A stretch of 64,000 nt of DNA from Lachnospiraceae bacterium (GTDB lineage: Bacteria; Bacillota; Clostridia; Lachnospirales; Lachnospiraceae). Made by a program: the position numbers and the translations under genes. Under the pieces are notes generated by a model. The model saw only the letters and a list, made by a program, of their open reading frames with translations, did no database searches and was not told the DNA's origin. Below are positions 3,321-59,884 of the stretch, in pieces. Positions within the stretch are counted from its first letter, which is position 1; each line of letters opens with the position of its first letter. Location of the stretch: contig JAILQQ010000054.1 in NCBI GenBank assembly GCA_024698885.1, positions 619-64,618 on the forward strand. Direction: 5' to 3'.

Positions 3321-4070
3321 ATGGAAAAAAACTCTGACCGCCTGTATCTGCTGGACGCGCTGCGCGGTTTCGTCGTTCTCATGATGATCGCCTTCCATTT
3401 CTGCTATGATTATTTCGTGATCTTCGGCGGGAACTATGAATGGCCGCTAAAACGCAGCATTTTTATCTGGGAACAGTCGATCTGCTGCTCCTTCAACCTG
3501 ATCTCCGGCTTTGTATGGCGTTTTGGAAAAAAGAACTGTATAAGACGCGGCGTGATCGTTAATCTCTGCGGTTTTGCCGTTACTTTCGCGACCTTGCTGA
3601 TCATGCCTGAAATGCCGATCCTTTACGGCGTTCTGACCTTCTTGGGCTGCGCCATGATCCTGATGCTGCCGCTTTCAAAGCTCCTGGACCGGCTGCCGGC
3701 GCTTCCCGGAGTCCTGATCTCCTTAGCCCTGTTTCTGGCCACCTTCTGCATCCCCCGCGGCGGACTCGGATTCTATGACCATCTCCTGTTCCCACTTCCG
3801 CAGGCACTGTATCACTCTGCTCTGCTTACGCCCCTTGGTTTTCCGTATATCGGCTTCTATTCCAGCGACTATTTTCCGCTGATCCCCTGGATCTTTCTCT
3901 ATATCTGCGGCTATTTTCTGAACAGGCTCCTTCTCGCGAAGGAATCCGTCACGCGCTTTCTGACGTATCGCATTCCTCCTCTTGAATGGATCGGCCGCCA
4001 CAGTCTCCTCCTCTACATGCTGCATCAGCCCGTCTGCTACGGTGTCTGTCTGCTGCTCTTTCACGCCTGA
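3321..4070 (+). CDS. DUF1624 / heparan-alpha-glucosaminide N-acetyltransferase-like membrane protein
   Basis: 249-aa polytopic membrane ORF. Its N-terminus RLYLLDALRGFVVLMMIAFHF is typical of this acyltransferase-like family. It is divergent from the GH2 gene. Confidence 0.6.
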   Translation: MEKNSDRLYLLDALRGFVVLMMIAFHFCYDYFVIFGGNYEWPLKRSIFIWEQSICCSFNLISGFVWRFGKKNCIRRGVIVNLCGFAVTFATLLIMPEMPILYGVLTFLGCAMILMLPLSKLLDRLPALPGVLISLALFLATFCIPRGGLGFYDHLLFPLPQALYHSALLTPLGFPYIGFYSSDYFPLIPWIFLYICGYFLNRLLLAKESVTRFLTYRIPPLEWIGRHSLLLYMLHQPVCYGVCLLLFHA

Positions 4071-7655: not shown

Positions 7656-9713
7656 ATGAAATTCAAAAAAATCAGTTCCCGTATGCTGGCCATCATCGTT
7701 CCGATCCTGATCCTGTCCATGGGGGTTATGACCGTGATCAGTGTCAGGGATTCCAGCAGCACGATCACCGAACAGATCAACGAACGCATGACCTCCGAGC
7801 TGAACGCGGCCGAGAAAGGCATCGAAGAAAGCCTGTCAGGCGTGACCGCCATGGCGGAAACCATCTCCGGCGCCGTAAGCTCCACCTATAAGGCGATGGG
7901 ATTGCCGTCCTTTGAAAAAATGTTAGCGGGGATCATCACAAGCAATGATATGGTCTTAGGCAGCGGCCTCTGGTTTGAGCCCTTTGCCTATAACAAAAAT
8001 AAGGAATATGTAGGCCCCTACATCTATAAAGACGGCGGTTCTACCGTCGTGACCTATGATTATGAGGGCCCGGAATATGACTATTTCTCCCAGGAATACT
8101 ATACGGCACCGAAGGCATCCAAAAAAACGGTCATTACGGATCCGTATTACGACCCGACCTCCGGTATCGTCATGTCCTCCTGCTCAACGCCGATCATCAA
8201 TGACAAGAGTGAATATGTAGGCTGTGTCACAGTCGATATGGAGCTTTCCTCGATATCGGAGCTGGTGGAAGGGATCAAGGTCGGAAAAAACGGCAATGCG
8301 ATCCTCCTTGACTCAAACGGCATCTTCTTAGCCGGTGTGTCCGGGGATAAGATCGAAGCCGCCGCCAATATCCAGAACGAGAGCAATGCGTCTCTGGCAG
8401 CCGCCGGAAAGCTGATCATGTCAAACGAAAAAGGCTCCACGACCTATACCTCTGCAGAGTTTGGTCTGGAGGATATCTACTATACAACGATACCCGCCAC
8501 GGGCTGGAAGGTCATGATCCAGATGCCGCGTTCCGAAACACAGGCGCCGGTAAAGCAGCTGGCCCTCATCATGATCGTCATCGCCGCGGCGTTTATCATT
8601 CTCGAAATACTGATCGTCATCCTGCAGGTACGGAGTATCGCCAAGAGCATCGGCAAGGTGAAGAATTTCGCCGGGACGCTCGCGGAGGGTGATTTCACGG
8701 TTTCACCGATCGAGGTCAGATCTGTCGACGAGCTGGGTGTCATGAGTACCTCCTTAAACGACATGTATGACAGCAACAAGGGCGTGATCAGCAGTATCGC
8801 CGACTATTCGAAGGAGATCGATGAAGCCAGCAGACGCCTGTCTGACTCGTCCAACGAATTAAACGATCAGTTTGATACCATCCAGAATCAGATGCACAAT
8901 GTAAACGGCGCCATGATGACCACAAGCGCCGCGACACAGGAAGTGAACGCTTCCACAGAAGAAGTGCTTTCCAACGTGAACCTCTTGGCCGGAGAAGCGG
9001 AATCCTGCATGGAGATGAGCCGCGAGATCATGGAACGCGCGGGCGACATCGAGCAGAAGAGCCGCAAGTCCTTTGATGAAGCGCAGAAGCTGACCACCGA
9101 GTTCTCCGAGAGGCTGGCGGAAAGCATCAAAAACGCGGAGGTCGTCGATACGATCAGCATGATGGCAGACGATATCTCCGGTATCGCGGGGCAGGTCAAT
9201 CTGCTTTCGTTAAACGCCTCCATCGAAGCGGCCAGAGCCGGAGACGCCGGCAGAGGCTTCGCGGTAGTCGCGACCGAGATCGGAAATCTGGCAGGCTCCA
9301 CCTCGGAAACCGTTTCCAGGATCCAGGAAACGATCCGGCAGGTGCAGGACGCCTTCGGGGAATTAAAGGATTCCGCCGGCGGGATCCTCGATTTCGTACA
9401 GAATACGGTGGCGCCGGATTATGATAACTTTGTCAGCGTAGCCGAGCAGTACGGAAATGACGCCAAGAGCTTCGAGAATGCCAGCAGCAAGATCTCCCAG
9501 ATGTCTGACAATATCAAGTCCATCATGAGCGAGGTGACGGACGCGGTACAGAATATCGCGGAAGCGACTCAGGATACGACGGATATCAGCTCACAGATCA
9601 TGAGCTCCATCGAAACAGCCTCCGAGCAGATCACGGATGTTTCCTGCATGTCCTCCTCGCAGCAGCAGATCGCTGACAGCCTGGCGGATACCGTCGGTAA
9701 GTTCAAACTGTAA
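7656..9713 (+). CDS. Methyl-accepting chemotaxis protein (Cache-like sensor, HAMP, signalling domain)
   Basis: The [15 protein letters not shown] start at 7656 follows AAAAGGAG. A transmembrane segment, a ~280-aa extracellular domain, a second transmembrane segment and a HAMP region are present. The signalling hairpin [31 protein letters not shown] is conserved. Confidence 0.93.
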
Positions 9714-9715
9714 GT

Positions 9716-9755
9716 TTGCGCCGATCCGGTCGGATCCTCCGACCGGATCATTTCC
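9716..9755 (-). repeat. Intergenic hairpin repeat (H3-type module with GATCATTTCC tail)
   Basis: TTGCGCCGATCCGGTCGGATCCTCCGACCGGATCATTTCC. The stem GATCCGGTCGGA/TCCGACCGGATC belongs to the repeat family described in the findings. Confidence 0.7.
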
Positions 9756-9771
9756 GCATTCCACACATAAT

Positions 9772-9811
9772 AAAAGCGCCCGGATCTCATTTCAAAGATC
9801 CGGGCGCTTTT
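9772..9811. terminator. Bidirectional rho-independent terminator between convergent genes
   Basis: AAAAGCGCCCGGATC (10-nt loop) GATCCGGGCGCTTTT gives a perfect 11-bp GC-rich stem. It is flanked by an A-tract and a T-tract, so it can serve both strands. Confidence 0.85.
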
Positions 9812-9832: not shown

Positions 9833-10087
9833 TTAGGAATCTATCTCCCCGCGGGCCTGCTGTACCTGCGTCCAGTTGACTATCATCCGGTTCTGTCCCG
9901 CCAGATGCGCCAGCGCATCAGCCTTGGTCTCATAAGCATCTATCTTATGGCCGTCGTGATCATCAAGCACCTCCCAGTGTTTTACCGGATCCGCCCCGGC
10001 TATTTCCGAGGAATCAAATAACATCCCGCCGGCTACCTTTCCCATTTCCTCTTCGCTTAATGCATTCTTCATTAAATTCTCATTCAT
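9833..10087 (-). CDS. Small secreted-peptide precursor candidate with double-glycine leader
   Basis: The 84-aa ORF starts at MNENLMKNALSEEEMGKVAGG. GGAGGG lies 7 nt upstream. The gene has its own promoter and terminator. The leader matches the LSxxELxxIxGG pattern, with hydrophobic residues at -4, -7 and -12 and Glu at -8. Confidence 0.6.
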   Translation of the reverse strand: MNENLMKNALSEEEMGKVAGGMLFDSSEIAGADPVKHWEVLDDHDGHKIDAYETKADALAHLAGQNRMIVNWTQVQQARGEIDS

Positions 10088-14298: not shown

Positions 14299-14903
14299 CA
14301 AGGATCAAGCTTTGCGGCATACGCCGGATAACGGAAATCGATGTGATCAATACGTTAAAACCTGACTACGTCGGCTTTGTTTTCGCGCCTAAGAGCAAAA
14401 GGGCGGTAACGAAGCAGACGGCAGAGGAGCTGCGGCTAAGGCTTCACCGGGATATCAAGACCGTGGGGGTTTTTGTGGATGAGGAGCTTTCTGTAGTGAC
14501 AGAGCTCCTGCAGGCAGGTATCATCGATATCGCGCAGCTTCACGGACACGAGACGGAAGAATATATTGGCAGGCTGAAGGACGTTTCCGGCAAACCGGTG
14601 ATCAGGGCTCTCCGGATCAGGAAGAAAGAGGACCTGGCCTTAGCGGATACGTGCGCGGCGGATCATATCCTGTTGGATGCCGGCGCCGGAGATGGCGTAA
14701 CCTTTGACTGGACATGGCTTCAAACCGTGAAAAGACCGTATTTTCTGGCAGGAGGCCTGAATCCGGAAAACGTCGGCGGGGCGGTACAGATGCTCCGGCC
14801 CTTCGGGGTGGACGTAAGCTCCGGGATCGAAACCGACGGCGTCAAGGACTTCGAAAAGATGCGGGCCTTTGTGGAGGCGGTACGGCAGCAGGATGAGAAA
14901 TAA
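14295..14903 (+). CDS. trpF: Phosphoribosylanthranilate isomerase
   Basis: MTRIKLCGI start. ATGA overlap with the trpC stop. The ORF-track start at 14280 is probably over-extended. Confidence 0.9.
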
Positions 14904-14965
14904 CAGATCGGCGCAGAGAGGAAATGATCCGGCCCGGAAGACGGAACGGATCAACGCAGAAAGGA
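14904..14965 (+). repeat. Intergenic hairpin repeat, the only copy in plus-sense orientation, ending in the trpB SD
   Basis: CAGATCGGCGCAGAGAGGAAATGATCCGG...CGGATCAACGCAGAAAGGA. It is the reverse complement of the motif seen next to minus-strand genes. It sits between trpF and trpB. Confidence 0.7.
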
Positions 14966-14971
14966 AAAGAA

Positions 14972-16165
14972 ATGGGTGAAAAAAAGGGCAGATTCGGTAT
15001 CCACGGCGGACAATATATACCGGAAACGCTGATGAACGCGGTAATTGAGCTGGAAAAGGCCTATGAGCGCTTCAGGGAGGATCCGGATTTTCAGAGAGAA
15101 CTGTCCGCGCTCCTTAACGAGTACGCCGGCCGGCCGTCACGGCTTTATTTTGCGGAAAAGATGACGGAGGATCTCGGGGGCGCCCGGATCTATTTAAAGA
15201 GAGAGGATCTCAATCATACCGGTGCCCATAAGATCAATAATGTTCTGGGACAGGCGCTGCTTGCGAAGAAAATGGGAAAGACGAGGCTGATCGCCGAAAC
15301 CGGGGCCGGCCAGCACGGTGTCGCCACGGCAACGGCTGCCGCTCTCATGGGGATGGAATGTGTTGTTTTCATGGGCGAAGAGGATACGAAACGGCAGGCC
15401 TTAAACGTCTACCGGATGCGCCTGCTCGGCGCCGAGGTGATCCCCGTAAAAACCGGAACCGCCACGTTAAAGGATGCGGTTTCCGAAGCGATGCGGGAAT
15501 GGACGAGAAGGATCGAGGATACGCACTACTGTCTCGGCTCCGTCATGGGACCCCACCCGTTTCCGACTATTGTCAGGGATTTTCAGGCGGTGATATCTTC
15601 GGAGATCAAGGCGCAGATGCTAAAAAAGGAGGGGCGCCTGCCGGATGCCGTTCTGGCCTGTGTCGGCGGGGGTTCTAACGCGATCGGAAGCTTCTATCAT
15701 TTTATCGGGGATAAGGAGGTCCGCCTGATCGGCTGCGAGGCAGCGGGAAGAGGCGTGGATACGCCGGAGACTGCCGCGACCATCGCGACGGGACGGGAAG
15801 GCATCTTTCATGGCATGAAATCCTATTTCTGTCAGGACGAATACGGCCAGATCGCGCCGGTTTATTCCATTTCCGCCGGACTTGACTACCCGGGGATCGG
15901 GCCGGAGCATGCCTATCTTTATGATACCGGCCGGGCGGAATATGTTGCCGTGACGGATGAGGAGGCAGTCGAAGCCTTTGAATACCTCGCAAGAACCGAA
16001 GGCATCATCCCTGCCATCGAATCCGCCCATGCGGTGGCATATGCCAGAGTACTGGCGCCGAAGTTCACAAAAGAGCAGACGATCGTCGTGACGCTGTCCG
16101 GCAGAGGAGATAAGGACTGCGCCGCGATCGCAAGATACAGAGGAGAGAAAGATATCCATGAGTAA
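14972..16165 (+). CDS. trpB: Tryptophan synthase beta chain
   Basis: The [18 protein letters not shown] start follows AAAGGAAAAG. PLP-lysine motif HTGAHKINN and GGGSNAIG are present. The ORF-track start at 14924 reads through the repeat. Confidence 0.95.
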
Positions 16166-18462: not shown

Positions 18463-18679
18463 CTGCGCCGATTCTACTTTTCAGACGGATCATTTCCTCT
18501 CTGCACCGATCTGCCCCGCAGATCGTGCGCTTAGGCATGAACTTCAGTTCATGCCGATCCGGTCTGTTTTTCAGACCGGATCATTTCCTTATCTGCGCCG
18601 ATTTGCTCGCAAATCGTGCGCTTAGGCATGAACTTCAGTTCATGCCGATCCGGTCTGTTTTTCAGACCGGATCATTTCC
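18463..18679 (-). repeat. Tandem modular three-hairpin repeat (one degenerate copy plus two 92-bp units)
   Basis: The units start at 18501 and 18593. Each contains H1 GCGCCGATyTGC..GCArATCGtGCGC, H2 GGCATGAAC-TTCA-GTTCATGCC and H3 GATCCGGTCTG-TTTTT-CAGACCGGATC, followed by the ATTTCC tail. Confidence 0.9.
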
Positions 18680-26957: not shown

Positions 26958-27642
26958 TTTTCTTACCCCTCGGTGCTTTCTTCTTCGGCTGTGCTTCCTT
27001 CTTCGGCTTCGCTTCTTTCCCCGCGCCTTCTTCCGGATCCGGCTGCGTTTTTTTCTCCGGCTTCTCTCCCGCGTTTAATTGACCAAGGTAGTCAAATCGC
27101 TCCTGCAGATCGTTCAGATCCGCGATCGAGTCCAGATAGTCCATGTAAGCCTCGATCGTTATCCTGTCGGGATCATCGCAAAGGAAAAGGATAAAGTCCG
27201 CGAAAAGATCCAGCTGTTCGCCAAGCGTTCCGAGATAAAACTGCGCGTCCTCAAGGGCCGCGTCCAAAGCCATCGGATTCACCGGCATCCGGTAGCTTAA
27301 ATAAACCTGTCTTAGCGGCGCGTAATACCCAAAGCACCCAAAAGAAGGAAAGGCACCGGTGGAGATCACGGTGTTTAAGCTGTTTAAGCCTGTCAGGATC
27401 CCCGGGAGCTTTTCCTCTTCGATCCGCTGCGCCAGTGTGGCATGAAAATGCAGGATCGGGTAGGGCATGTCCGGATAGAAGCCGTCCTCCATGGCAGCTT
27501 CAAAAATGACATCGGTCCCCGATACCCCAAGGTTCCTCGCCATAGACCTGAGAACCCCTTTATGATCCCTGCAGTTGCCGAAAAGCCTTTCAATATTCTT
27601 CTTCAGCTCGTCCTCAAATTCCGCTGTTGATCCTATTGCCAT
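26950..27642 (-). CDS. Hypothetical protein, possibly YbjN / type III secretion chaperone-like fold, with a basic Lys/Pro tail
   Basis: The MAIGSTAEFEDELKK start at 27642 follows AGGAAAA. The ORF-track start at 27687 reads through a hairpin repeat. The fold assignment rests on strand/helix pattern only (ILHFHATLA, LTGLNSLNTV, GCFGYYAPLRQVYLSY). The tail is KPKKEAQPKKKAPRGKKNA. Confidence 0.6.
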   Translation of the reverse strand: MAIGSTAEFEDELKKNIERLFGNCRDHKGVLRSMARNLGVSGTDVIFEAAMEDGFYPDMPYPILHFHATLAQRIEEEKLPGILTGLNSLNTVISTGAFPSFGCFGYYAPLRQVYLSYRMPVNPMALDAALEDAQFYLGTLGEQLDLFADFILFLCDDPDRITIEAYMDYLDSIADLNDLQERFDYLGQLNAGEKPEKKTQPDPEEGAGKEAKPKKEAQPKKKAPRGKKNA

Positions 27643-27655
27643 TTCCGTTTTCCTG

Positions 27656-27686
27656 TCTGCGCCAATTTGCCTGCAAATTGCGCGCA
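27656..27686 (-). repeat. Intergenic hairpin repeat (H1-type), directly 5' of an SD
   Basis: TCTGCGCCAATTTGC-CT-GCAAATTGCGCGC. In sense orientation it is followed by CAGACAGGAAAACGGAAATG. Confidence 0.75.
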
Positions 27687-30729: not shown

Positions 30730-30945
30730 GGCATCAAAAGTGTCATGTGGCAAAGCCACATGTGCAATTTGCATGGTAAACCGTCTCTGCAAGCTCGCTT
30801 ACAAGAGCGGTTTATTATGCAAAGTGTCATGTGGCAAAGCCACATGTGTAATTTGCATGGTAAACCGTCTCTGCAAGCTCGCTTGCAAGAGCGGTTTATT
30901 ATGCAAATTCATCATGGCACTTTGTGCCATGTGACTTTTGATGCC
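30730..30945. repeat. Structured tandem element: two 84-bp units plus a third palindrome, closed by a 12-bp inverted repeat
   Basis: GGCATCAAAAGT (30730..30741) pairs with ACTTTTGATGCC (30934..30945). The units run 30740..30823 and 30824..30907. The palindrome CATGTGGC-AAA-GCCACATG occurs at 30744 and 30828, and the related CATGGCAC-TTTG-TGCCATG at 30913. Confidence 0.85.
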
Positions 30946-34602: not shown

Positions 34603-35998
34603 CGGTGATGACCGACATGCCGGCGGTAAGTCCGTCTATCACCTCGACAGCATCGCCGCTTACGATGCCGGCGGTAAAGTACTTCTTTTCGATCCGCCCC
34701 TCATCATTGATGATATAGCAGTACTCGCCGTCATCATCGCTGTAAAAGGCCTGGTACGGCATCAGCAGGACGTCTGCCTTTTCGTCGGTATAGATCGTCA
34801 CGTCCGCCTCAAGCCCTAAGATCAGCCCTCTTCCCCCCTCTATCTTCACATCGACCGCGACCTTTGACTTGTCCGAGCTGTCCGTCACCGCGATCTGCCT
34901 GATCTTTGACACCTTTCCGATATATCTGGTCCCCGAGGCGTCTATCTCGGCTCTCTGTCCCACGGCAATGCTGCTGATATCGTATTTCGAGATCATGACG
35001 GTGACCTTCATGTCATCTCTGGATACGATCGTAAACAGGGGATCCCCCTTCGAAGCGACAGAGCCCGCCTTCACATGGCAGCTCGTGACAATACCGTTAA
35101 AATCAGAGGTTATCCCCTGTCTGGCCTTTTCGAGATCGATCCGCGCATAGCTCTCCTGCTCCTTCGCGATCTCCACCTGATCAAGGAGGGCCGCCTTTTC
35201 CCCGGAATTCAGCACGCCCTCCTCATATTTTGCCTTATTGGTTTTGGTTTCATTCCAGTTTCTCGATATATCCTCCATCATATTGGATACATCGTTGTTC
35301 AGCCGGTATTCCTCCGGCGTAAGCGCTAACTGCGGAAGGGCGGCAAGCTCAACCTGCGCGCGCGCGATATCCTCCTTCAGTCCCGAGATATCCTTTTCCA
35401 GCTGCTGCCTGTCCTCGTCGGAAAGCCCGCCGTCAAGGAGCTTCGTACTCTTCTCGGCGATCTGCTGATTCTTCGAGGCAATGCAGGTATTCAGCTCCGT
35501 GGCCCGTTTTTCCGTGTTCCAGTTTTCCTGATACTGATCCTCTGAGATATAGTCCGACGCTTCCCGCTGCCACCAGTAAAGGACCGCATAGGTATTGTCA
35601 TCGTCCACAGCCTTGTTATACTTTGCCTGGTAGGAATCGCTCTTGCCGATCTTTCCTTTGCTGGTATCCTCGCTCTGGACCCTTGTTAAAGCCGCGTGCT
35701 CGGCATTTCTTTCAAAATCCTCAACATCATATTCGAGGAGCTTCTCGCCGAAGCGTACCTCATCTCCCTCTTCTATGGCAATGCTGGCAACGGGAGCCGT
35801 CACCCCCGCAAAATATGTATATTCCTCGTCACTGCCTATGCTGCCGGTCTCCTCGATGGAGCCCGCGATACTCCCCAGATAGATCTTCCCGGTCTCATGC
35901 TCCTTCCCTCTGCCCGGGAAAAAAGCCATCAGCGCGAAAGTGGATGCGCCAAGCGCGATGATCGGGAGCGTGACCCTGACGACCGTTCTTAAGCTCAT
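34550..35998 (-). CDS. HlyD/efflux periplasmic adaptor family protein
   Basis: The MSLRTVVRVTLPIIALGAS start at 35998 follows AGGAGG. It has an N-terminal TM, coiled-coil and beta-barrel regions. The ORF-track start at 36115 reads through a hairpin repeat. Confidence 0.8.
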   Translation of the reverse strand: MSLRTVVRVTLPIIALGASTFALMAFFPGRGKEHETGKIYLGSIAGSIEETGSIGSDEEYTYFAGVTAPVASIAIEEGDEVRFGEKLLEYDVEDFERNAEHAALTRVQSEDTSKGKIGKSDSYQAKYNKAVDDDNTYAVLYWWQREASDYISEDQYQENWNTEKRATELNTCIASKNQQIAEKSTKLLDGGLSDEDRQQLEKDISGLKEDIARAQVELAALPQLALTPEEYRLNNDVSNMMEDISRNWNETKTNKAKYEEGVLNSGEKAALLDQVEIAKEQESYARIDLEKARQGITSDFNGIVTSCHVKAGSVASKGDPLFTIVSRDDMKVTVMISKYDISSIAVGQRAEIDASGTRYIGKVSKIRQIAVTDSSDKSKVAVDVKIEGGRGLILGLEADVTIYTDEKADVLLMPYQAFYSDDDGEYCYIINDEGRIEKKYFTAGIVSGDAVEVIDGLTAGMSVITDAVTDEQIGEKAFEAVH

Positions 35999-36011: not shown

Positions 36012-36043
36012 TCTGCGCCGATTCGCTTGCGAATCGGATCATT
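36012..36043 (-). repeat. Intergenic hairpin repeat (H1-type), directly 5' of an SD
   Basis: TCTGCGCCGATTCGC-TT-GCGAATCGGATCATT. In sense orientation it is followed by CAGACATAGGAGGCCTTATG. Confidence 0.75.
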
Positions 36044-36130: not shown

Positions 36131-36160
36131 CTCTCGCCGATCTGCCTGCAGATCATGCGC
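36131..36160 (-). repeat. Intergenic hairpin repeat (H1-type variant)
   Basis: CTCTCGCCGATCTGC-CT-GCAGATCATGCGC, immediately after the stop of the DtxR-family gene. Confidence 0.65.
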
Positions 36161-36532
36161 TTATCCCCCGTATTTCTCCATATGGGCCTTGACCGCGTGA
36201 AAGGTTTCGTCGCTGATGTAATGCTCGATGCGGCACGCATCCTCCACAGCGATCTTTTCATCCACGCCGAGATTGATAAAAAGCCTGGTCAGCACGGTAT
36301 GCCGTTCATAGATGCGCTTTGCCGTCGCAGCGCCGGCTTCCGTCAGCTTCAGATAGCCGTCATCATCCTTCGTGACAAATCCTTCCTTCTTAAGCACGCC
36401 GATGGCACGGCTGACGGAGGGCTTGGTATACCCCAGATAATCGCTCACATCTATGCTGCGGACGGCCGCCTGTTTCTGCGAAAGCACATATATTGCTTCC
36501 AGGTACATTTCTCCGGATTCCTGTAATGCCAT
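36161..36532 (-). CDS. DtxR/MntR-family metal-dependent transcriptional repressor
   Basis: 123 aa. MYLEAIYVL...TKPSVSRAIGVLKKEGFV is a winged-helix region, and the dimerisation region is typical of the family. Confidence 0.85.
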   Translation of the reverse strand: MALQESGEMYLEAIYVLSQKQAAVRSIDVSDYLGYTKPSVSRAIGVLKKEGFVTKDDDGYLKLTEAGAATAKRIYERHTVLTRLFINLGVDEKIAVEDACRIEHYISDETFHAVKAHMEKYGG

Positions 36533-36554
36533 AATACTAACCCTCCTACCTTCC

Positions 36555-36674
36555 CGACCGGATCATTTCTGCGCCGATTTGCCCGCAAATCGTGCGCTTA
36601 GGCATGATCTTCAGATCATGCCGATTCGGTCTGCTTGCAGACCGAATCATTTCTTTGTTTGCGCCAATCTGCCC
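36555..36674 (-). repeat. Modular three-hairpin repeat, single diverged unit plus partial flanks
   Basis: Same H1-H2-H3 order as at 18501. The paired substitutions keep all three stems intact, for example GGCATGATC-TTCA-GATCATGCC and GATTCGGTCTG-CTTG-CAGACCGAATC. Confidence 0.88.
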
Positions 36675-36756
36675 CAGTTTACCATATATCTCCGCGCTGC
36701 GCAACGGAAGCCCCCGCCTCTTCCAAGGTCCCTGCATGGCGCGGAAAACCGTTAAG

Positions 36757-44653: not shown

Positions 44654-45406
44654 ATGCTGCTATATGCTCTGGCGCTGGCGCCGTCGATCATACTTTTGAT
44701 CTGGCTGCTTCGGATAAAAAGATATTCCCCTTACCCAAAGGGGATCGTTGCCGGAATGTTCGCCGGGGGAGCCGCATGCGCGGTGCTTGTCGGGATCATA
44801 TTCTGGGCGATCGATTATTTCCCCGTCATGCGGACCGTCGGATCAGAGAGGTTTTTTGAACTGTTTCTTTCGGAGGATCCGACAGAGCTCGAAAGCCTTC
44901 AGAACGAGCTCTCCCCGTTTGGCGGGTATATGACGCTCCCTTCCATTCTCTGGGAGAATTTTATATCCACCGCTGCCGCGGAAGAGATCGCGAAATACCT
45001 TGTCGCCGTTTTCTTTATCAAAAGGATCGACGCAAAGTACACCGTATTTGACGCTGTCGTATGCAGTTCGATCACCGCCGTCGGATTTCAGCTGATCGAG
45101 GATCTCATGTATCTCGACGGTACTTTAGTGACTGCCGTCGTCCGGGGCATAACGCCCTTTCACTTCACGTACGGAGCGATCATGGGATTCTTTATCGGAA
45201 GAGCCATTGCCACCGGAAATAAGCAGTACCGTCTGAAGGCGCTGCTCATTCCGATCCTGATCCACGGGATCTATGATTTCAGTATTTATCTGGTAGATGC
45301 AGACGACTGGTTCCTTCTGCTCTTCTTTGTCATATATGGCCTGCTTGCGGCACTCACAATCTATATCATCACAAGGATCCACAGGATGGGCAGAAGATGT
45401 TCATAG
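44654..45406 (+). CDS. prsW: PrsW-family intramembrane glutamic/metallo-protease
   Basis: AAAEEIAKY and HGIYDF motifs in a polytopic membrane protein. Confidence 0.8.
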   Translation: MLLYALALAPSIILLIWLLRIKRYSPYPKGIVAGMFAGGAACAVLVGIIFWAIDYFPVMRTVGSERFFELFLSEDPTELESLQNELSPFGGYMTLPSILWENFISTAAAEEIAKYLVAVFFIKRIDAKYTVFDAVVCSSITAVGFQLIEDLMYLDGTLVTAVVRGITPFHFTYGAIMGFFIGRAIATGNKQYRLKALLIPILIHGIYDFSIYLVDADDWFLLLFFVIYGLLAALTIYIITRIHRMGRRCS

Positions 45407-45413
45407 GTTCCGG

Positions 45414-46625
45414 CTAGCGCGGCGGCTGTCCGTTGCTTCCGGGCGGCGTTTCCCCGGGATCCTGAGGCTGTTGCGGCCTCCCGTTCATCTCTGTATCCTG
45501 CGGAGGCTCCGGCGCAGGATCAGAAGGCCCCTCCGGTCTCCCGGTCATCTCTGTCCCCTGCGGCAGCTCCGGGGGAGAATCAGAAGGCCCCTCCGGCCTC
45601 CCGGTCATCTCTGTCCCCTGCGGTTGCTCCGGCGCAGGATCAGAAGGTCCCTCCGGCCTCCCGGTCATCTCTGTCCCCTGCGGTAACTCTGTCGCAGGCT
45701 CCGAAGGCTTCTCCGGTCTCCCGGTCGTCTCTGTACCCTGCGGCAGCTCTGTCGCAGACTCCGAAGGCCTCTCCGGCCGCCCGGTCATTTCTGTTTCCTG
45801 CGGAGGCTCTGTCGGAGGTTCAGAAAGCCCTTCCGGCCTCCCGGTCGTTTCTGTTTCCTGCGGAAGCTCTGTCGCAGGTTCTGAAGGCCTCTCCGGCCTT
45901 TCAGTCATCTCTGTATCCGTCTTTCCGCTTTCCGGCGGTAACGGCGGTGCTTCCTGTCCGTTTTCCGGATATTGTTCCAGCATGATCACCTTCCCGGGGC
46001 TCATGTTCCCGTCATGGGCTCTGGTCTTCAGATCCCGATCCACGATATAGGATTCGCCGTGGATACTCCTGTCCGGGTGCTTCCTGCCCTGCTCTTCGTT
46101 CCAGGCTTCCATTTCTCCTCTGGTTTTCTTTTCAAGCCTCCCGTCGCGGAACAGATGACTGTCTACCGTCATGATGACAGGCGTTTCCTCTCCGATATAA
46201 TCCGCCTCATCCAGCGCGTTTAACGTCATTTCGATCGCGGTATCGATATCCTGCCCCAAAACCTCCGAAGAGATTGTCGAAACGATATCTTCCCCATCCT
46301 CATTATAAGAAGCGAAATCGATCACCCGGTCAAAAAAGTTCAGGTCATACCGCAGGGACGGATTCAGATCCAGCGTAACCGTACTGTAGGCAAAAGTATT
46401 GGCGGAAAAGCTTCCCACAAGGATCAGCACGGCCGCTGCCGCCGCGGTCAGCTTTGCGGCGCGTGAACGGGTAAAGGAAAGAAGCTTCTGCCCCGTTCCC
46501 TGTCCGCTCTCAAACTCGATCGACTGACCGATCCGGTAGCTTTTGTTCCGGATATTATAATAGGTGCCGTCCATCGCCAAAACTGCGGCTCTGTCGCCCT
46601 GAATACTCATTACTACCGCTTTCAA
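45414..46625 (-). CDS. rsgI: RsgI-like anti-sigma-I factor with Pro/Glu-rich tandem-repeat C-terminus
   Basis: TTG start after AGGAGAG. The N-terminus MKAVVMSIQGDRAAVLAMDGTYYNI is an RsgI_N-type domain. A single TM is followed by an LDLNPS motif. There are about 7.5 repeats of 20 aa (TEMTGRPEGPSDPAPE.PQG). Confidence 0.8.
   Translation of the reverse strand: MKAVVMSIQGDRAAVLAMDGTYYNIRNKSYRIGQSIEFESGQGTGQKLLSFTRSRAAKLTAAAAAVLILVGSFSANTFAYSTVTLDLNPSLRYDLNFFDRVIDFASYNEDGEDIVSTISSEVLGQDIDTAIEMTLNALDEADYIGEETPVIMTVDSHLFRDGRLEKKTRGEMEAWNEEQGRKHPDRSIHGESYIVDRDLKTRAHDGNMSPGKVIMLEQYPENGQEAPPLPPESGKTDTEMTERPERPSEPATELPQETETTGRPEGLSEPPTEPPQETEMTGRPERPSESATELPQGTETTGRPEKPSEPATELPQGTEMTGRPEGPSDPAPEQPQGTEMTGRPEGPSDSPPELPQGTEMTGRPEGPSDPAPEPPQDTEMNGRPQQPQDPGETPPGSNGQPPR
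45435..45917 (-). repeat. Coding 60-bp tandem repeat (about 7.5 to 8 units) inside rsgI
   Basis: The near-identical unit CCCTCCGG(Y)CTCCCGGTCATCTCTGTCCCCTGCGG... is visible by eye. The antisense ORF it generates is an artefact. Confidence 0.9.
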
Positions 46626-46640: not shown

Positions 46641-46670
46641 TCTGCGCCGATCCGCCTGCGGATCATTTCC
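46641..46670 (-). repeat. Intergenic hairpin repeat (H1-type with GATCATTTCC tail), directly 5' of the rsgI SD
   Basis: TCTGCGCCGATCCGC-CT-GCGGATCATTTCC, between the sigI stop and the rsgI start. Confidence 0.75.
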
Positions 46671-47441: not shown

Positions 47442-48141
47442 TCCTTATCCTGGTAAAAAATCCTGTTTCTGTGCGCGATCCTTCCGTATTCCCCGCCGTG
47501 TCTGTATCACAGGAAGTCTCCGCGGATGGTTTCTGATCGGATCCCATCGGCATCGGTGCCTTCATTTCAACCGTGATGCCGTTTTCTCTGAGCGCCGCGA
47601 TCAGCGCTTCTTCCGCTTCTCTTGCGGCAGTTCTGAGCGAATCCAGATCGGTTTCCCCTTCTGAAGAGCCGTCTCCTTCCCTCAAAGCGTCAAATGCTTC
47701 CCGTTCAGCCTCCCGTGCCGATTCATACGCCGCAAGCAGCCCGGAGAGCGTCGACTGTGTCTCCTCATCCTCGATCGAGGAGATCGCTTCCGCCACGGCT
47801 TCCGGATCGATCATGCCGCCTTTTTGTCCGCGCCCCATGGGCGGTGCCTGCTGCCCGTCAGGTGCTTCCCCCTCCGGCAGCTCCGGGCGTTCCCCTTCAT
47901 TCATTTCCGGCAGCTCCGGACGATCCCCCTCGTTCATCTGGGGCAGTTCCGGGCGCTCCCCTTCATTCATTTCCGGCAGCTCCGGACGTTCGCCCTCCGC
48001 GAAAGCTCCCTGTGCCTCTCTGCCGCCGCCCATCCGGTTTCCGTTCCCGGGTGCCGCCAGGGCACAAACGGAAAGGGTCACTGCCAAAATCCCCGTTAAG
48101 ATCGCTGTTGATACTTTTTTACTGTTTTTTACTCTTCTCAT
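47401..48141 (-). CDS. Secreted hypothetical protein with 11-aa GERPELPEMNE repeats
   Basis: The MRRVKNSKKVSTAILTGILAVTLSVCALA signal peptide follows AAAGGAGAG. Four 33-bp tandem repeats lie at 47874..47997. The C-terminal half is acidic and helical. Confidence 0.75.
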   Translation of the reverse strand: MRRVKNSKKVSTAILTGILAVTLSVCALAAPGNGNRMGGGREAQGAFAEGERPELPEMNEGERPELPQMNEGDRPELPEMNEGERPELPEGEAPDGQQAPPMGRGQKGGMIDPEAVAEAISSIEDEETQSTLSGLLAAYESAREAEREAFDALREGDGSSEGETDLDSLRTAAREAEEALIAALRENGITVEMKAPMPMGSDQKPSAETSCDTDTAGNTEGSRTETGFFTRIRNAASDFFGKFTKG

Positions 48142-48156
48142 TTCATTCTCTCCTTT

Positions 48157-48195
48157 TCTGCGCGGCTCCGGCCAACCCTTCAGACCGGATCATCG
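48157..48195 (-). repeat. Intergenic hairpin repeat (diverged), directly 5' of an SD
   Basis: TCTGCGCGGCTCCGGCCAACCCTTCAGACCGGATCATCG. In sense orientation it is followed by CGCAGAAAAGGAGAG and the ATG at 48141. Confidence 0.6.
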
Positions 48196-48283
48196 TTTTT
48201 TTCGTTCCTGCTTATACATACAAACGGAGAAATGAAAAAACGGGGGTAAAAAAAATATTTTTAAATTTTTGACAAAGTATCGC

Positions 48284-48833: not shown

Positions 48834-49340
48834 TCAGGAATCGGCGCCCATCCTTATGAGCTTGATGATCAGCGCGTATACGATATCCCTTACCACATGT
48901 CTGATCAGGAAAACGATATGAATACCGAGGCAGGCGCCCGCGATTCCGCCGAAAAGCAGAAAGCCGGCGATCGCTCCCGCGGGCAGGAAGATCACGCCCG
49001 AGGTAAAGACAACCGTTCCCGTGGCAAACTGCAGGATATAGGCCGCCACAGACAGAAACGTTGCGAAAAACAGCAGTCCGTAGGCGCCGGTAACAAAGCC
49101 GATCACCCCGAGGATCCCTAAAATAAGGTAGAACAGATAGCAAAAGCGGAAAAGCCATTCCACTGCCTTTCCCATCCCTTCCTCATTCTTCTCTGCCATA
49201 GCGCGGTCTTCCTCTGCCGGCCATCTGCTCTTCTTATCGATCTCATTGCCACATTCCGGGCAGAAGATCGGATCCTTTCCCGAAACAGCCAGAGGAGAAA
49301 ACTCGAATTCCTTTTTACAGTTCTCACAATACCTCAGCAT
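48834..49340 (-). CDS. Zinc-ribbon membrane protein, function unknown
   Basis: The start MLRYCENCKKEFEF...CPECGN has two CxxC pairs and is followed by 4 TM helices. The ORF-track start at 49388 reads through a hairpin repeat. Confidence 0.65.
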   Translation of the reverse strand: MLRYCENCKKEFEFSPLAVSGKDPIFCPECGNEIDKKSRWPAEEDRAMAEKNEEGMGKAVEWLFRFCYLFYLILGILGVIGFVTGAYGLLFFATFLSVAAYILQFATGTVVFTSGVIFLPAGAIAGFLLFGGIAGACLGIHIVFLIRHVVRDIVYALIIKLIRMGADS

Positions 49341-49351
49341 GATAAATCCTT

Positions 49352-49392
49352 TCTGCGCCGATCCGTTTTGTTTTTCCGACCGGATCATTTCC
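49352..49392 (-). repeat. Intergenic hairpin repeat with GATCATTTCC tail, directly 5' of an SD
   Basis: TCTGCGCCGATCCG-TTTTGTTTTTCCGA-CCGGATCATTTCC. In sense orientation it is followed by GCGCAGAAAGGATTTATCATG. Confidence 0.75.
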
Positions 49393-58297: not shown

Positions 58298-59796
58298 ACG
58301 TTCTCCTCCCCGGCGATCAGCCGCATGATCGCGCTCTGGCTGATCTCTTCTCCGTACAGCTCTCCGACGATCTTTTTATTCCGAAGAACAAACATTTTAC
58401 TGCAGCAGCGCTCCATTTCCTCAAGCTCCGAGGAGATAAAGACACAGCTCATGCCCTTTTTCGCAAGCTCTACCACGATCTTCTGGATCTCAGCCTTTGC
58501 GCCCACATCGATCCCTCTCGTCGGTTCGTCTAAGATCAGAAGCTTCGGATCCGTCGCAAGCCATCTGGCTAACAGCACCTTCTGCTGATTTCCGCCGGAA
58601 AGATTTTTGATCTTCTGGTCCGCGGAGGGCGTCTTGATCGCCAGCTCCTTAATGAGCCTCTCCGCGATCTCGTCCGCTTCCTTTCTGGATATCTTATGCA
58701 GCACCCCGCGTTTGCTCTGCAGGGCGATCACGATGTTTTCGCGGATCGTCAGGTCGCCTACGATCCCCTCCTTCTTTCTGTCTTCCGGGCAGAAGGCGAT
58801 ATCGTGAAGGATCGCGTCCAGGGGATTCCGGATGCTTTCTTCCTTTCCTTCCATCACTGTCCTTCCGGACGTCATTCTGTCCGCGCCGAAAATGAGTCTC
58901 GCGGTCTCGCTTCTTCCCGATCCCAGTAATCCCGAGAAACCCGTCACCTCGCCCCTTCCGATGGAAAGGCTGATATCCGTGATGGCGCCGGTGGTTCCAT
59001 TTTCGATCCGAAGTAACTCCTCTACGTTCTCCCTGTCTCCGGAAAGCTTCGGGATCGCCTCTAACGATTCGTAATCCTTACCGATCATCTTTCCGACAAG
59101 CTCTATCATCGGCAGCTTATCGGCATCATATGTCCCGATATAGGTACCGTTTCGCAGCACCGTGATACGGTCGGAGACCTCGTAGACCTGGTCGAGAAAA
59201 TGTGTGACAAAAATGATACCCATTCCCCGCTCCCGCAGCATCCGCATGATGTCAAACAGCCTTTTGACCTCCTGCGCGGAAAGACTGGAGGTCGGCTCGT
59301 CCAGGATCAGGACCTTGGCCTTAACGTCCACGGCCCTTGCGATCGCGATCATCTGCTGCACTGCCACGGAATAGTTATCAAGCCTCTCCTCCACATTGAT
59401 CGAAAGGCCGAAATCCTTTAACAGCTCCCTTGTTTTTTCATGGATGCGCTTCCAGTCGATGCGCATTCCCTTTCTGAGCTCTCTTCCGATAAAAACATTT
59501 TCCGCCACCGACAGATCCGGACAGAGATTCACCTCCTGATACACTGTGCTGATCCCGGCGTTCTGGGCGTCAACAGGGCGTTTCGGAGAGATCTCCTTTC
59601 CGTCCATCTCGATCGTCCCGGCATTTTTACTCTCTACCCCGGTAAGCACCTTGATCAGCGTCGACTTGCCCGCGCCGTTTTCGCCCAAAAGAGCATGTAT
59701 CTCACCGGCCCTTAAGGAAAAAGCCACATCATTCAGGGCTTTTACACCGGGATATTCCTTATAGATGTGCTCCATCCTTAATATCGTATTTTCCAT
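58294..59796 (-). CDS. Sugar ABC transporter ATP-binding protein with duplicated ATPase domains (YtfR/RbsA-like)
   Basis: The MENTILRMEHIYKEY start at 59796 follows GAAGGGAG. Walker A sites GENGAGKST and GLLGSGRSE, and the signature LSGGNQQK, are present. The ORF-track start at 59889 reads through a repeat. Confidence 0.92.
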   Translation of the reverse strand: MENTILRMEHIYKEYPGVKALNDVAFSLRAGEIHALLGENGAGKSTLIKVLTGVESKNAGTIEMDGKEISPKRPVDAQNAGISTVYQEVNLCPDLSVAENVFIGRELRKGMRIDWKRIHEKTRELLKDFGLSINVEERLDNYSVAVQQMIAIARAVDVKAKVLILDEPTSSLSAQEVKRLFDIMRMLRERGMGIIFVTHFLDQVYEVSDRITVLRNGTYIGTYDADKLPMIELVGKMIGKDYESLEAIPKLSGDRENVEELLRIENGTTGAITDISLSIGRGEVTGFSGLLGSGRSETARLIFGADRMTSGRTVMEGKEESIRNPLDAILHDIAFCPEDRKKEGIVGDLTIRENIVIALQSKRGVLHKISRKEADEIAERLIKELAIKTPSADQKIKNLSGGNQQKVLLARWLATDPKLLILDEPTRGIDVGAKAEIQKIVVELAKKGMSCVFISSELEEMERCCSKMFVLRNKKIVGELYGEEISQSAIMRLIAGEENV

Positions 59797-59844: not shown

Positions 59845-59884
59845 TCTGCGCCGATTTGCGTAAGCAGATCGTGTGCTCGTTTCC
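59845..59884 (-). repeat. Intergenic hairpin repeat (H1-type, imperfect) nested inside an 11-bp outer stem
   Basis: TCTGCGCCGATTTGCGTAAGCAGATCGTGTGCTCGTTTCC. It is enclosed by AACTCCGGCTT (59821..59831) and AAGCCGGAGTT (59896..59906). Confidence 0.7.

Follow-up and report, generated by a model that had tools for sequence, protein, structure and literature searches.

Among Gram-positive and plastid mRNAs, a structure or a bound factor directly upstream of the ribosome-binding site (RBS) defines the downstream cistron's 5' end or protects it against RNase J, as in the ermC and aprE leader hairpins, in the STAB-SD of cryIIIA and in the PPR10 barrier of chloroplast intercistronic spacers. Among interspersed repeats, the REP, BOX, ERIC and Correia families are usually orientation-neutral or enriched 3' of genes. 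The REP/BIME elements of Enterobacteria and Pseudomonas, with the RAYT-mobilised REPINs, are short, GC-rich, imperfect palindromes, extragenic and co-transcribed, with hundreds of copies per genome, compensatory changes in their stems and a variable copy number, all of which they have in common with the repeat described here. They are arranged as inverted pairs or alternating clusters, lie mostly 3' of genes and are accompanied by a RAYT gene. MIRUs vary in copy number between strains, and their units, which Supply et al. in 1997 reportedly described as 40-100 bp long, often tandem, intercistronic in operons and oriented with transcription, carry small ORFs that overlap at their ends with the flanking stop and start codons.

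The BOX elements of Streptococcus pneumoniae (boxA-boxB-boxC) are likewise composites of hairpin-forming boxes, found in a Firmicute and differing in how many modules they contain; transcripts of the neighbouring genes include them, with possible orientation-dependent effects on expression (PMC3049150), and the spacers between convergent genes have more than their share of pneumococcal repeats (PMC3049150, Table 1). The Correia/NEMIS elements of Neisseria and the ERIC/IRU elements of Enterobacteria are also small repeats, close to genes and co-transcribed, whose RNA hairpins are RNase targets and alter mRNA stability (PMC3049150). They resemble MITEs in having terminal inverted repeats and target duplications, and are found in both orientations. 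The TAACTGA repeats of marine Beggiatoaceae, with 169 sets of intergenic direct repeats, are likewise lineage-specific and intergenic with well over a hundred loci; they are heptamers without hairpins, in Gammaproteobacteria (PMC4679880).

The three-hairpin repeat presented here belongs to a rumen Lachnospiraceae genome and is previously undescribed; in the literature, no described equivalent was found in Clostridia or Lachnospiraceae. It was noticed in a stretch of 64,000 nucleotides (the window). The organism is a ruminant-gut Lachnospiraceae, whose TrpB is closest, with 89% amino-acid identity, to those of Lachnospiraceae bacterium AB2028 and of rumen MAGs. The DNA runs containing the stretch are bovine gut metagenomes, and no RNA run containing it was found. 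The complete unit is about 87 nt long and consists of a head, GGAAATGATY (AAGGAAATGATY), three hairpins and a tail, ATCGGCGCAGA. Hairpin 1 has the form GATCCGGTCnG...CnGACCGGATC; hairpin 2, GGCATGAAC...GTTCATGCC, is followed by a TAA linker, and hairpin 3, GCGC-A-CGATYYGC...GCRRATCG-GCGC, by a final AGA. One-hairpin short forms and head-to-tail arrays are also found. The sequences at the two ends of the unit, GGAAATGATC and GATCGGCGCAGA, do not form an inverted pair.

The copy between trpF and trpB is the only one in the window that reads in the plus sense, as the preliminary description had it. On the plus strand, the trpF stop codon (14901-14903) is followed by CAG-ATCGGCGCAGA-GA-GGAAATGATC-CGGCCCGGAAGACGGAACGGATC-AACGCAGA-AAGGAAAAGAA-ATG, in which these elements can be told apart:

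14907..14917, plus strand: solo tail box ATCGGCGCAGA, 3 nt past the trpF stop, read directly
14920..14960, plus strand: short one-hairpin unit, from sequence and fold
14920-14929, plus strand: head GGAAATGATC of the short unit
14926-14931 with 14947-14952, plus strand: stem of the short unit, GATCCG pairing with CGGATC in the fold
14950-14960, plus strand: degenerate tail ATCAACGCAGA of the short unit, touching the trpB Shine-Dalgarno (SD) site
14961..14974, plus strand: trpB SD AAGGAAAAG and ATG start (14972), directly after the degenerate tail

The TrpB proteins of relatives have their N-termini about 6-19 codons ahead of the GRFG motif, matching the start at 14972. A repeat end does abut the trpB SD, as had been proposed, but the abutting end is the degenerate ATCAACGCAGA, the exact ATCGGCGCAGA being the solo tail 5' of the head. 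The copies that had been listed beside minus-strand genes all exist and read in the minus sense:

9711..9761, minus strand: one-hairpin unit in a convergent spacer, abutting the stop of the plus-strand gene 7656-9713
18463..18679, minus strand: tandem array of two full three-hairpin units (18593-18679, 18501-18588) and a short unit (18463-18498)
27656..27685, minus strand: hairpin-3 and tail module GCGCGCAATTTGCAGGCAAATTGGCGCAGA, adjoining the SD of the gene that starts at 27642
36012..36043, minus strand: partial head with one hairpin and a tail (AATGATCCGATTCGCAAGCGAATCGGCGCAGA), adjoining the SD of the gene that starts at 35998
36131..36163, minus strand: degenerate hairpin-3 and tail fragment, upstream of a promoter-like region of the gene starting at 35998
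36546..36675, minus strand: tail-like remnant, full three-hairpin unit (36569-36653) and truncated next head/hairpin
46641..46670, minus strand: minimal unit GGAAATGATCCGCAGGCGGATCGGCGCAGA, abutting the SD of an rsgI-like gene (TTG 46625)
48157..48203, minus strand: one-hairpin unit, degenerate, adjoining the SD of the gene that starts at 48141
49352..49392, minus strand: one-hairpin unit made up of head, hairpin 1 and tail, adjoining the SD of the gene that starts at 49340
59845..59884, minus strand: hairpin-3 and tail module in the spacer of an operon, with about 50 nt between it and the start at 59796 and thus not SD-adjacent

The copy at 36546-36675 has an SD and then an ATG at 36532 downstream of it on the minus strand. 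The copy at 9711-9761, earlier listed at 9716, is co-oriented with the minus-strand gene 9833-10087 as claimed, but lies in a convergent spacer, sense to and 3' of that gene, and so has no gene downstream of it in its own orientation. Beside this copy, at 9772-9811, a 17-bp perfect stem (AAAAGCGCCCGGATC...GATCCGGGCGCTTTT) with A and T runs flanking both sides looks like a bidirectional terminator within the convergent spacer. The seven junctions of tail, SD and start codon are as they had been given, and their starts agree with those of a self-trained gene caller:

trpB 14972, plus strand: AACGCAGA-AAGGAAAAGAA-ATG
18444, minus strand: GGCGCAGG-GAAAGGAGAGAGGGAGT-TTG, the tail of the array 18463-18679 abutting the SD
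27642, minus strand: GGCGCAGA-CAGGAAAACGGAA-ATG
35998, minus strand: GGCGCAGA-CATAGGAGGCCTT-ATG
46625, minus strand: GGCGCAGA-ACAGGAGAGAAAACG-TTG
48141, minus strand: CGCGCAGA-AAAGGAGAGAATGAA-ATG
49340, minus strand: GGCGCAGA-AAGGATTTATC-ATG

The five ORFs said to be over-extended (14924, 27687, 36115, 49388 and 59889) are longest-ORF starts; at two of them, 14924 and 49388, longest-ORF callers take the head ATG (GGAAATGATCC) as the start, giving the spurious N-terminal extensions MIRPGRR... and MIRSEKQ..., respectively. The accompanying claim that the hairpins contain no stop codons is true of the short copies only, 85 of the 163 full units in the genome being stopped in all three sense frames.

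In the window, ATCGGCGCAG (with at most one mismatch) is observed 17 times against 7.9 expected and GGAAATGATC 33 times against 8.2. A search of the window, which holds 12 copies, against Rfam 15 at gathering score gave 0 matches. The window also contains two 84-bp direct repeats, 98% identical and each with palindromes, at 30737-30904 in the spacer upstream of a minus-strand operon; these have no relation to the three-hairpin family. Coding tandem repeats are present in the rsgI-like gene (45397-45974, 60-nt period, 7 copies) and in the neighbouring secreted-protein gene (47843-47997, 33-nt period, 4 copies).

The genome scan covered 3.71 Mb in the 266 contigs of a draft MAG. ATCGGCGCAG is observed 300 times against 7.6 expected and GGAAATGATCCGG 142 times against 0.1. 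A regular expression finds 163 full units, 80-90 nt in length with one of 99, and a profile search (nhmmer) reports 388 hits at E <= 0.01, 234 of them near full length. The RNAalifold consensus of 45 units has three hairpins, with compensatory double changes in 14 of 32 pairs. The stems are 97% Watson-Crick and the loops have 2-6 nt; among the stem mismatches, G-U (37) and A-C (36) are equally frequent, so that there is no G-U excess and no signature of an RNA strand, and selection on the stems at the RNA level gains no support from this comparison. In the arrays, units follow each other head-to-tail with a period of about 85-91 nt. Neighbouring units of one array have private variants in common, indicating that arrays grow by local duplication. 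The short forms (head, one hairpin, tail) are the expected product of a deletion between two ATCGGC words. Many full units are located at the extreme ends of contigs, e.g. G000:C214:1-86 in the studied genome and G031:C18:68-154 in a second species (also in a third, G018). The repeat evidently breaks short-read MAG assemblies, and the copy numbers are underestimates. In the genome as a whole CTAG is strongly avoided (399 observed, Markov expectation 2040). An excess of GATC was considered as a clue and dropped: it is 3-fold over base composition, but only 1.29-fold over the Markov expectation.

The census of the genome comprises 346 confident arrays, together 28 kb, of which 330 (95%) are intergenic. 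Between co-directional genes 182 arrays are in the sense and 12 in the antisense orientation (94% sense, about 15:1, p = 3.6e-40), while 47 arrays lie in divergent and 28 in convergent spacers. The convergent spacers hold about 8.5% of the arrays, which equals the background share of such spacers; here the element is sense to the upstream gene and is often found between the stop codon of that gene and its terminator. From these contexts, the convergent spacers included, it follows that the element is almost always inside a transcript in the sense orientation. In 78 of the 182 sense arrays in tandem context no more than 40 nt of free spacer is left, so these arrays must be inside operons. Where the gene and the regional strand majority are in conflict, the array follows the gene, 7 to 0, and an explanation of the polarity by the replication strand is thereby out. 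The polarity relative to the mRNA that had been proposed from the window is thus fixed to the gene and not to the regional strand majority. The census of orientation and of distance to start codons, named beforehand as the test of that proposal, strongly favours it genome-wide.

In all, 148 of the 3101 genes (about 5%) have a GCGCAG end 8-24 nt ahead of their start codon. The median distance from the 3' end of an array to the start codon is 18 nt, with 133 of 262 arrays at 10-19 nt. By the distance histogram, 144 of 231 GCGCAG ends lie 8-22 nt from a start codon, and the contexts sum alike: tandem spacers contribute 101 of 162, divergent spacers 25 of 39, and ends without a called upstream neighbour 18 of 30, a similar share in each. 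Comparison with uniform placement rules out spacer size as the cause of this adjacency, since 26 of 47 arrays in divergent spacers are SD-adjacent where 3.4 are expected (z = 12.8), as are 25 of 82 in tandem spacers with at least 80 nt free, where 7.6 are expected (z = 6.7). The gene starts were chosen partly by SD score, an effect mitigated by an annotation-free check: in 40% of cases an exact tail has behind it an SD-like word, then a start codon that opens an ORF of 60 codons or more, whereas this holds for 2.7% of random positions and, on the opposite side of the tail sites, for 0 of 300.

The offset from the tail to the next GG peaks at 3-4 nt, at array-internal junctions (the GG of the next head) and at SD junctions alike, which puts the SD in register with a 'next head'. 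About two thirds of the tails that do not adjoin a gene have no following SD-like word, so SD-like targeting cannot be obligatory. In tandem spacers free of the element, AGGAG is found on the sense and antisense strands in a ratio of 10:1 and AAGGAG in a ratio of 13:1, close to the 15:1 polarity of the arrays.

All arguments at the RNA level are predictions, and the effects on accessibility are modest (0.05-0.11). The predicted accessibility of the RBS (-18 to +6) is 0.595 for element-adjacent genes and 0.485 for 393 SD-bearing control genes (p = 1e-13); when the element part is shuffled, it is 0.546 compared with the native 0.595 (p = 7e-8). The suggestion that the repeat modulates ribosome access gains weak support from this, the native RBS being predicted as more open than with either the control genes or the shuffled upstream part. 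Reverse-complementing the element in place lowers the predicted accessibility from 0.575 to 0.492 (p = 3e-11), with a drop of more than 0.1 in 39% of genes and a rise of more than 0.1 in 6%. No intrinsic terminator or attenuator was found on the sense strand, where a purine-rich sequence follows each hairpin. In a consensus scan of 19 kb, inverted hairpin 1 with ATTTCCTTAT ranks second and third among terminator-like sites; these sites (18556-18582 and 18647-18673, plus strand) are terminator-like on the antisense strand only. The antisense terminator-like sites and the loss of predicted RBS accessibility on inversion speak in silico for the earlier idea that the repeat is tolerated in the sense polarity only.

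RNase Y (741 bits) and RNase J (623 bits) are encoded in the genome, and with both present a stabilising or processing role of the repeat would be feasible. The linker and head AAGGAAATGATCC (e.g. 14918-14932) match 11 of 13 positions of AAGGAGGTGATCC, the complement of the canonical Firmicute 16S rRNA 3' end; the reverse complement of AAGGAAATGATCC would accordingly be anti-SD-like. No 16S gene is present in the MAG.

By covariance model, the family is carried by 5 of the 50 species in the genus and by 0 of 300 other genera of Lachnospiraceae. The copies found by this search are distributed as follows:

G000 (the studied genome): at least 89 copies
G031: at least 68 copies
G018: at least 57 copies
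G037: 8 copies
G003: 2 copies

In G031, where twenty loci were viewed, about 16 of 25 arrays abut an SD and start codon, as in the studied genome. Individual positions are not shared: of the 10 G031 sites that could be evaluated, not one has a copy at its orthologous junction in G000, and the trpF-trpB junction is empty of the repeat in G018, G031 and 80 other genomes, mostly of Lachnospiraceae and other Clostridia. At two G000 junctions orthologous to G031 array sites, tail-like remnants (CAGCGCAG and CGTACGCAGA) stand directly before the SD, which may be either ancient copies in decay or solo tails that recombination has left behind. These remnant junctions are in a flagellar-like operon (contig C133 of G000, about 3400-3900), and the corresponding G031 locus, L041, has arrays at three consecutive junctions. 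A strain in run X1, 96-97% identical, has kept the trp and rsgI copies, and its array corresponding to 18463-18679 is shorter by 153 nt. No empty sites were recovered in close strains, from an exact TrpF look-up, which gave no match, or from the metagenome contigs of run X1. The elements are 80-87% identical across species, as they are within a genome, while gene identity among the species that carry them is only about 74%; this similarity above that of the genes could reflect functional constraint on the sequence.

As to mobility, PF01797 (Y1_Tnp, RAYT) has no match in G000, G031, G018 and G037, draft MAGs from which a transposase gene may have been lost, and G003, with its 2 copies, has one weak match (53 bits, 6.5e-14). 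With no Y1_Tnp in four of the five element-bearing genomes and a weak match only in G003, a RAYT/IS200 origin was rejected. PF01797 matches are present in 24 of the 50 genomes of the genus, namely G003 and 23 without a match to the element model R1. No gene-sized insert flanked by the 5' half and the 3' half of a unit was found as an autonomous parent. Direct repeats that resemble AAGGA or the tail are common on the flanks of arrays, and no clear target-site duplication was seen at the filled sites.

We favour, with a probability of roughly 55%, the reading that this is a lineage-restricted, high-copy, non-autonomous repeat with fast turnover, whose copies either persist or insert at the 5' edge of SD sites in sense orientation alone. 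Inside transcription units, survival of a copy, and probably its seeding too, would be confined to this position and orientation. New copies and the growth of arrays may exploit the similarity between the AAGGA of the head and the AAGGAG of the SD, either as microhomology or as the target of some enzyme. SD-like words being 10-13 times commoner on the sense strand of spacers, SD-like seeding alone would give polarity; seeding and expansion at SD-like AAGGA could thus give the register, the adjacency and most of the polarity. Arrays would extend head-to-tail, and short forms would arise by deletion between the ATCGGC microhomologies. Antisense copies would presumably be purged, as their RNA has a GC-rich hairpin followed by AUUUCCUU and is terminator-like, and as their pyrimidine tract can pair with the RBS and mask it. 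In the sense orientation, the self-contained hairpins would leave the RBS open and form a 5'-proximal structure on the downstream cistron, and with RNase Y and RNase J present such hairpins could slow 5'-to-3' decay, likely as a side effect and not as the raison d'être of the repeat. Against this reading count the lack of a mobilising enzyme and of clear terminal inverted repeats or target-site duplications among what was found. The data would allow the repeat a beneficial, mechanistically feasible role in insulating the RBS or stabilising the 5' end; they do not require one, and the lack of positional conservation weakens the case for it.

Such a role is the substance of an alternative in which the repeat is an adaptive RNA module, whose hairpins, after cleavage by RNase Y, would block RNase J or insulate the RBS and so set the relative expression of cistrons. 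The strict sense polarity, always inside transcription units, the SD adjacency beyond what spacers impose, the predicted openness of the RBS relative to controls and to a shuffled upstream part, the hairpins maintained by compensatory changes, the higher conservation of the element than of genes between species and the presence of both RNases are all in its favour. However, no position is conserved between species (0 of 10), copy number varies between strains, only 5 species carry the family, G-U and A-C mismatches are balanced (37 and 36) with no RNA-strand-specific signature, and near-perfect palindromes with 2-6-nt loops look DNA-like; we therefore hold this alternative to be possible but doubtful. 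A more elaborate version appears unlikely: a portable intercistronic leader cassette that would punctuate the operons of its host, supplying RNase Y sites, RNase J-resistant caps and an unpaired RBS, and perhaps a standby dock for the 30S subunit, with the head AAGGAAATGATCC as the part that might dock it in the manner of a STAB-SD. Were it true, the intercistronic elements of chloroplasts would have a bacterial counterpart in this cassette, one that spreads by transposition.

The mismatch tolerance, being strand-symmetric, and the high-copy extragenic palindromes would also suit a DNA-level element of the REP/RAYT or IS200/IS605 type, the orientation of which would track the replication fork and only seemingly transcription. 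IS608 and ISDra2 are hairpin-dependent single-strand transposons that insert in one orientation next to a short target, and such one-way insertion is a general precedent for the polarity. Such an element is nevertheless very improbable, as Y1_Tnp is absent from G000, G031, G018 and G037 (allowing for loss from draft MAGs), as the arrays are head-to-tail and not inverted doublets, and as the elements follow the gene over the regional majority 7 to 0, with the plus-strand trp copy standing among minus-strand copies. It is also conceivable that the units encode or extend peptides, either as MIRU-like mini-ORFs that couple translation or as N-terminal extensions, given that five downstream ORFs stay open through short copies and that the head contains an ATG. 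But the units, at 80-90 nt (one 99), do not keep to multiples of three, no sense frame stays open in 85 of the 163, the head ATG lies only 1-2 nt after AAGGA, and the TrpB proteins of relatives begin at the position of 14972 and not earlier, which leaves a coding function with next to no credence.

The repeats have practical consequences: they cause mis-called start codons (five in the window) and contig breaks in the MAGs of rumen Lachnospiraceae. The family is a natural experiment on how a structured insert directly upstream of the RBS affects translation and 5'-to-3' mRNA decay, and it also poses the question of how a repeat with no recognisable transposase finds SD sites. If RBS insulation or stabilisation of the downstream cistron is true, the units would be ready-made parts for operon design in Clostridia.

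By the features that define those groups, the family is not a REP/RAYT, MITE, BOX or MIRU element; it is a polar, RBS-abutting variant of interspersed hairpin repeats. It differs from REP/BIME in that three different hairpins follow each other head-to-tail, with strict sense polarity and mostly 5' of genes against the SD. With BOX it has no sequence relation, and it has no Rfam hit; in contrast to the pneumococcal repeats, it is at the background share in convergent spacers and mostly abuts SD sites. Compared with Correia/NEMIS and ERIC/IRU, it has no inverted termini and only one orientation. The likeness to the 5' stabilisers is one of mechanism only, those being single, locus-specific and experimentally proven, whereas the present family is a repeat known from sequence. 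To MIRUs it is similar in its tandem units, intercistronic spacers and sense orientation (182 to 12, with 78 of the 182 inside operons), but its units are stable hairpins of variable length, not multiples of three, and 85 of 163 are closed in all sense frames.
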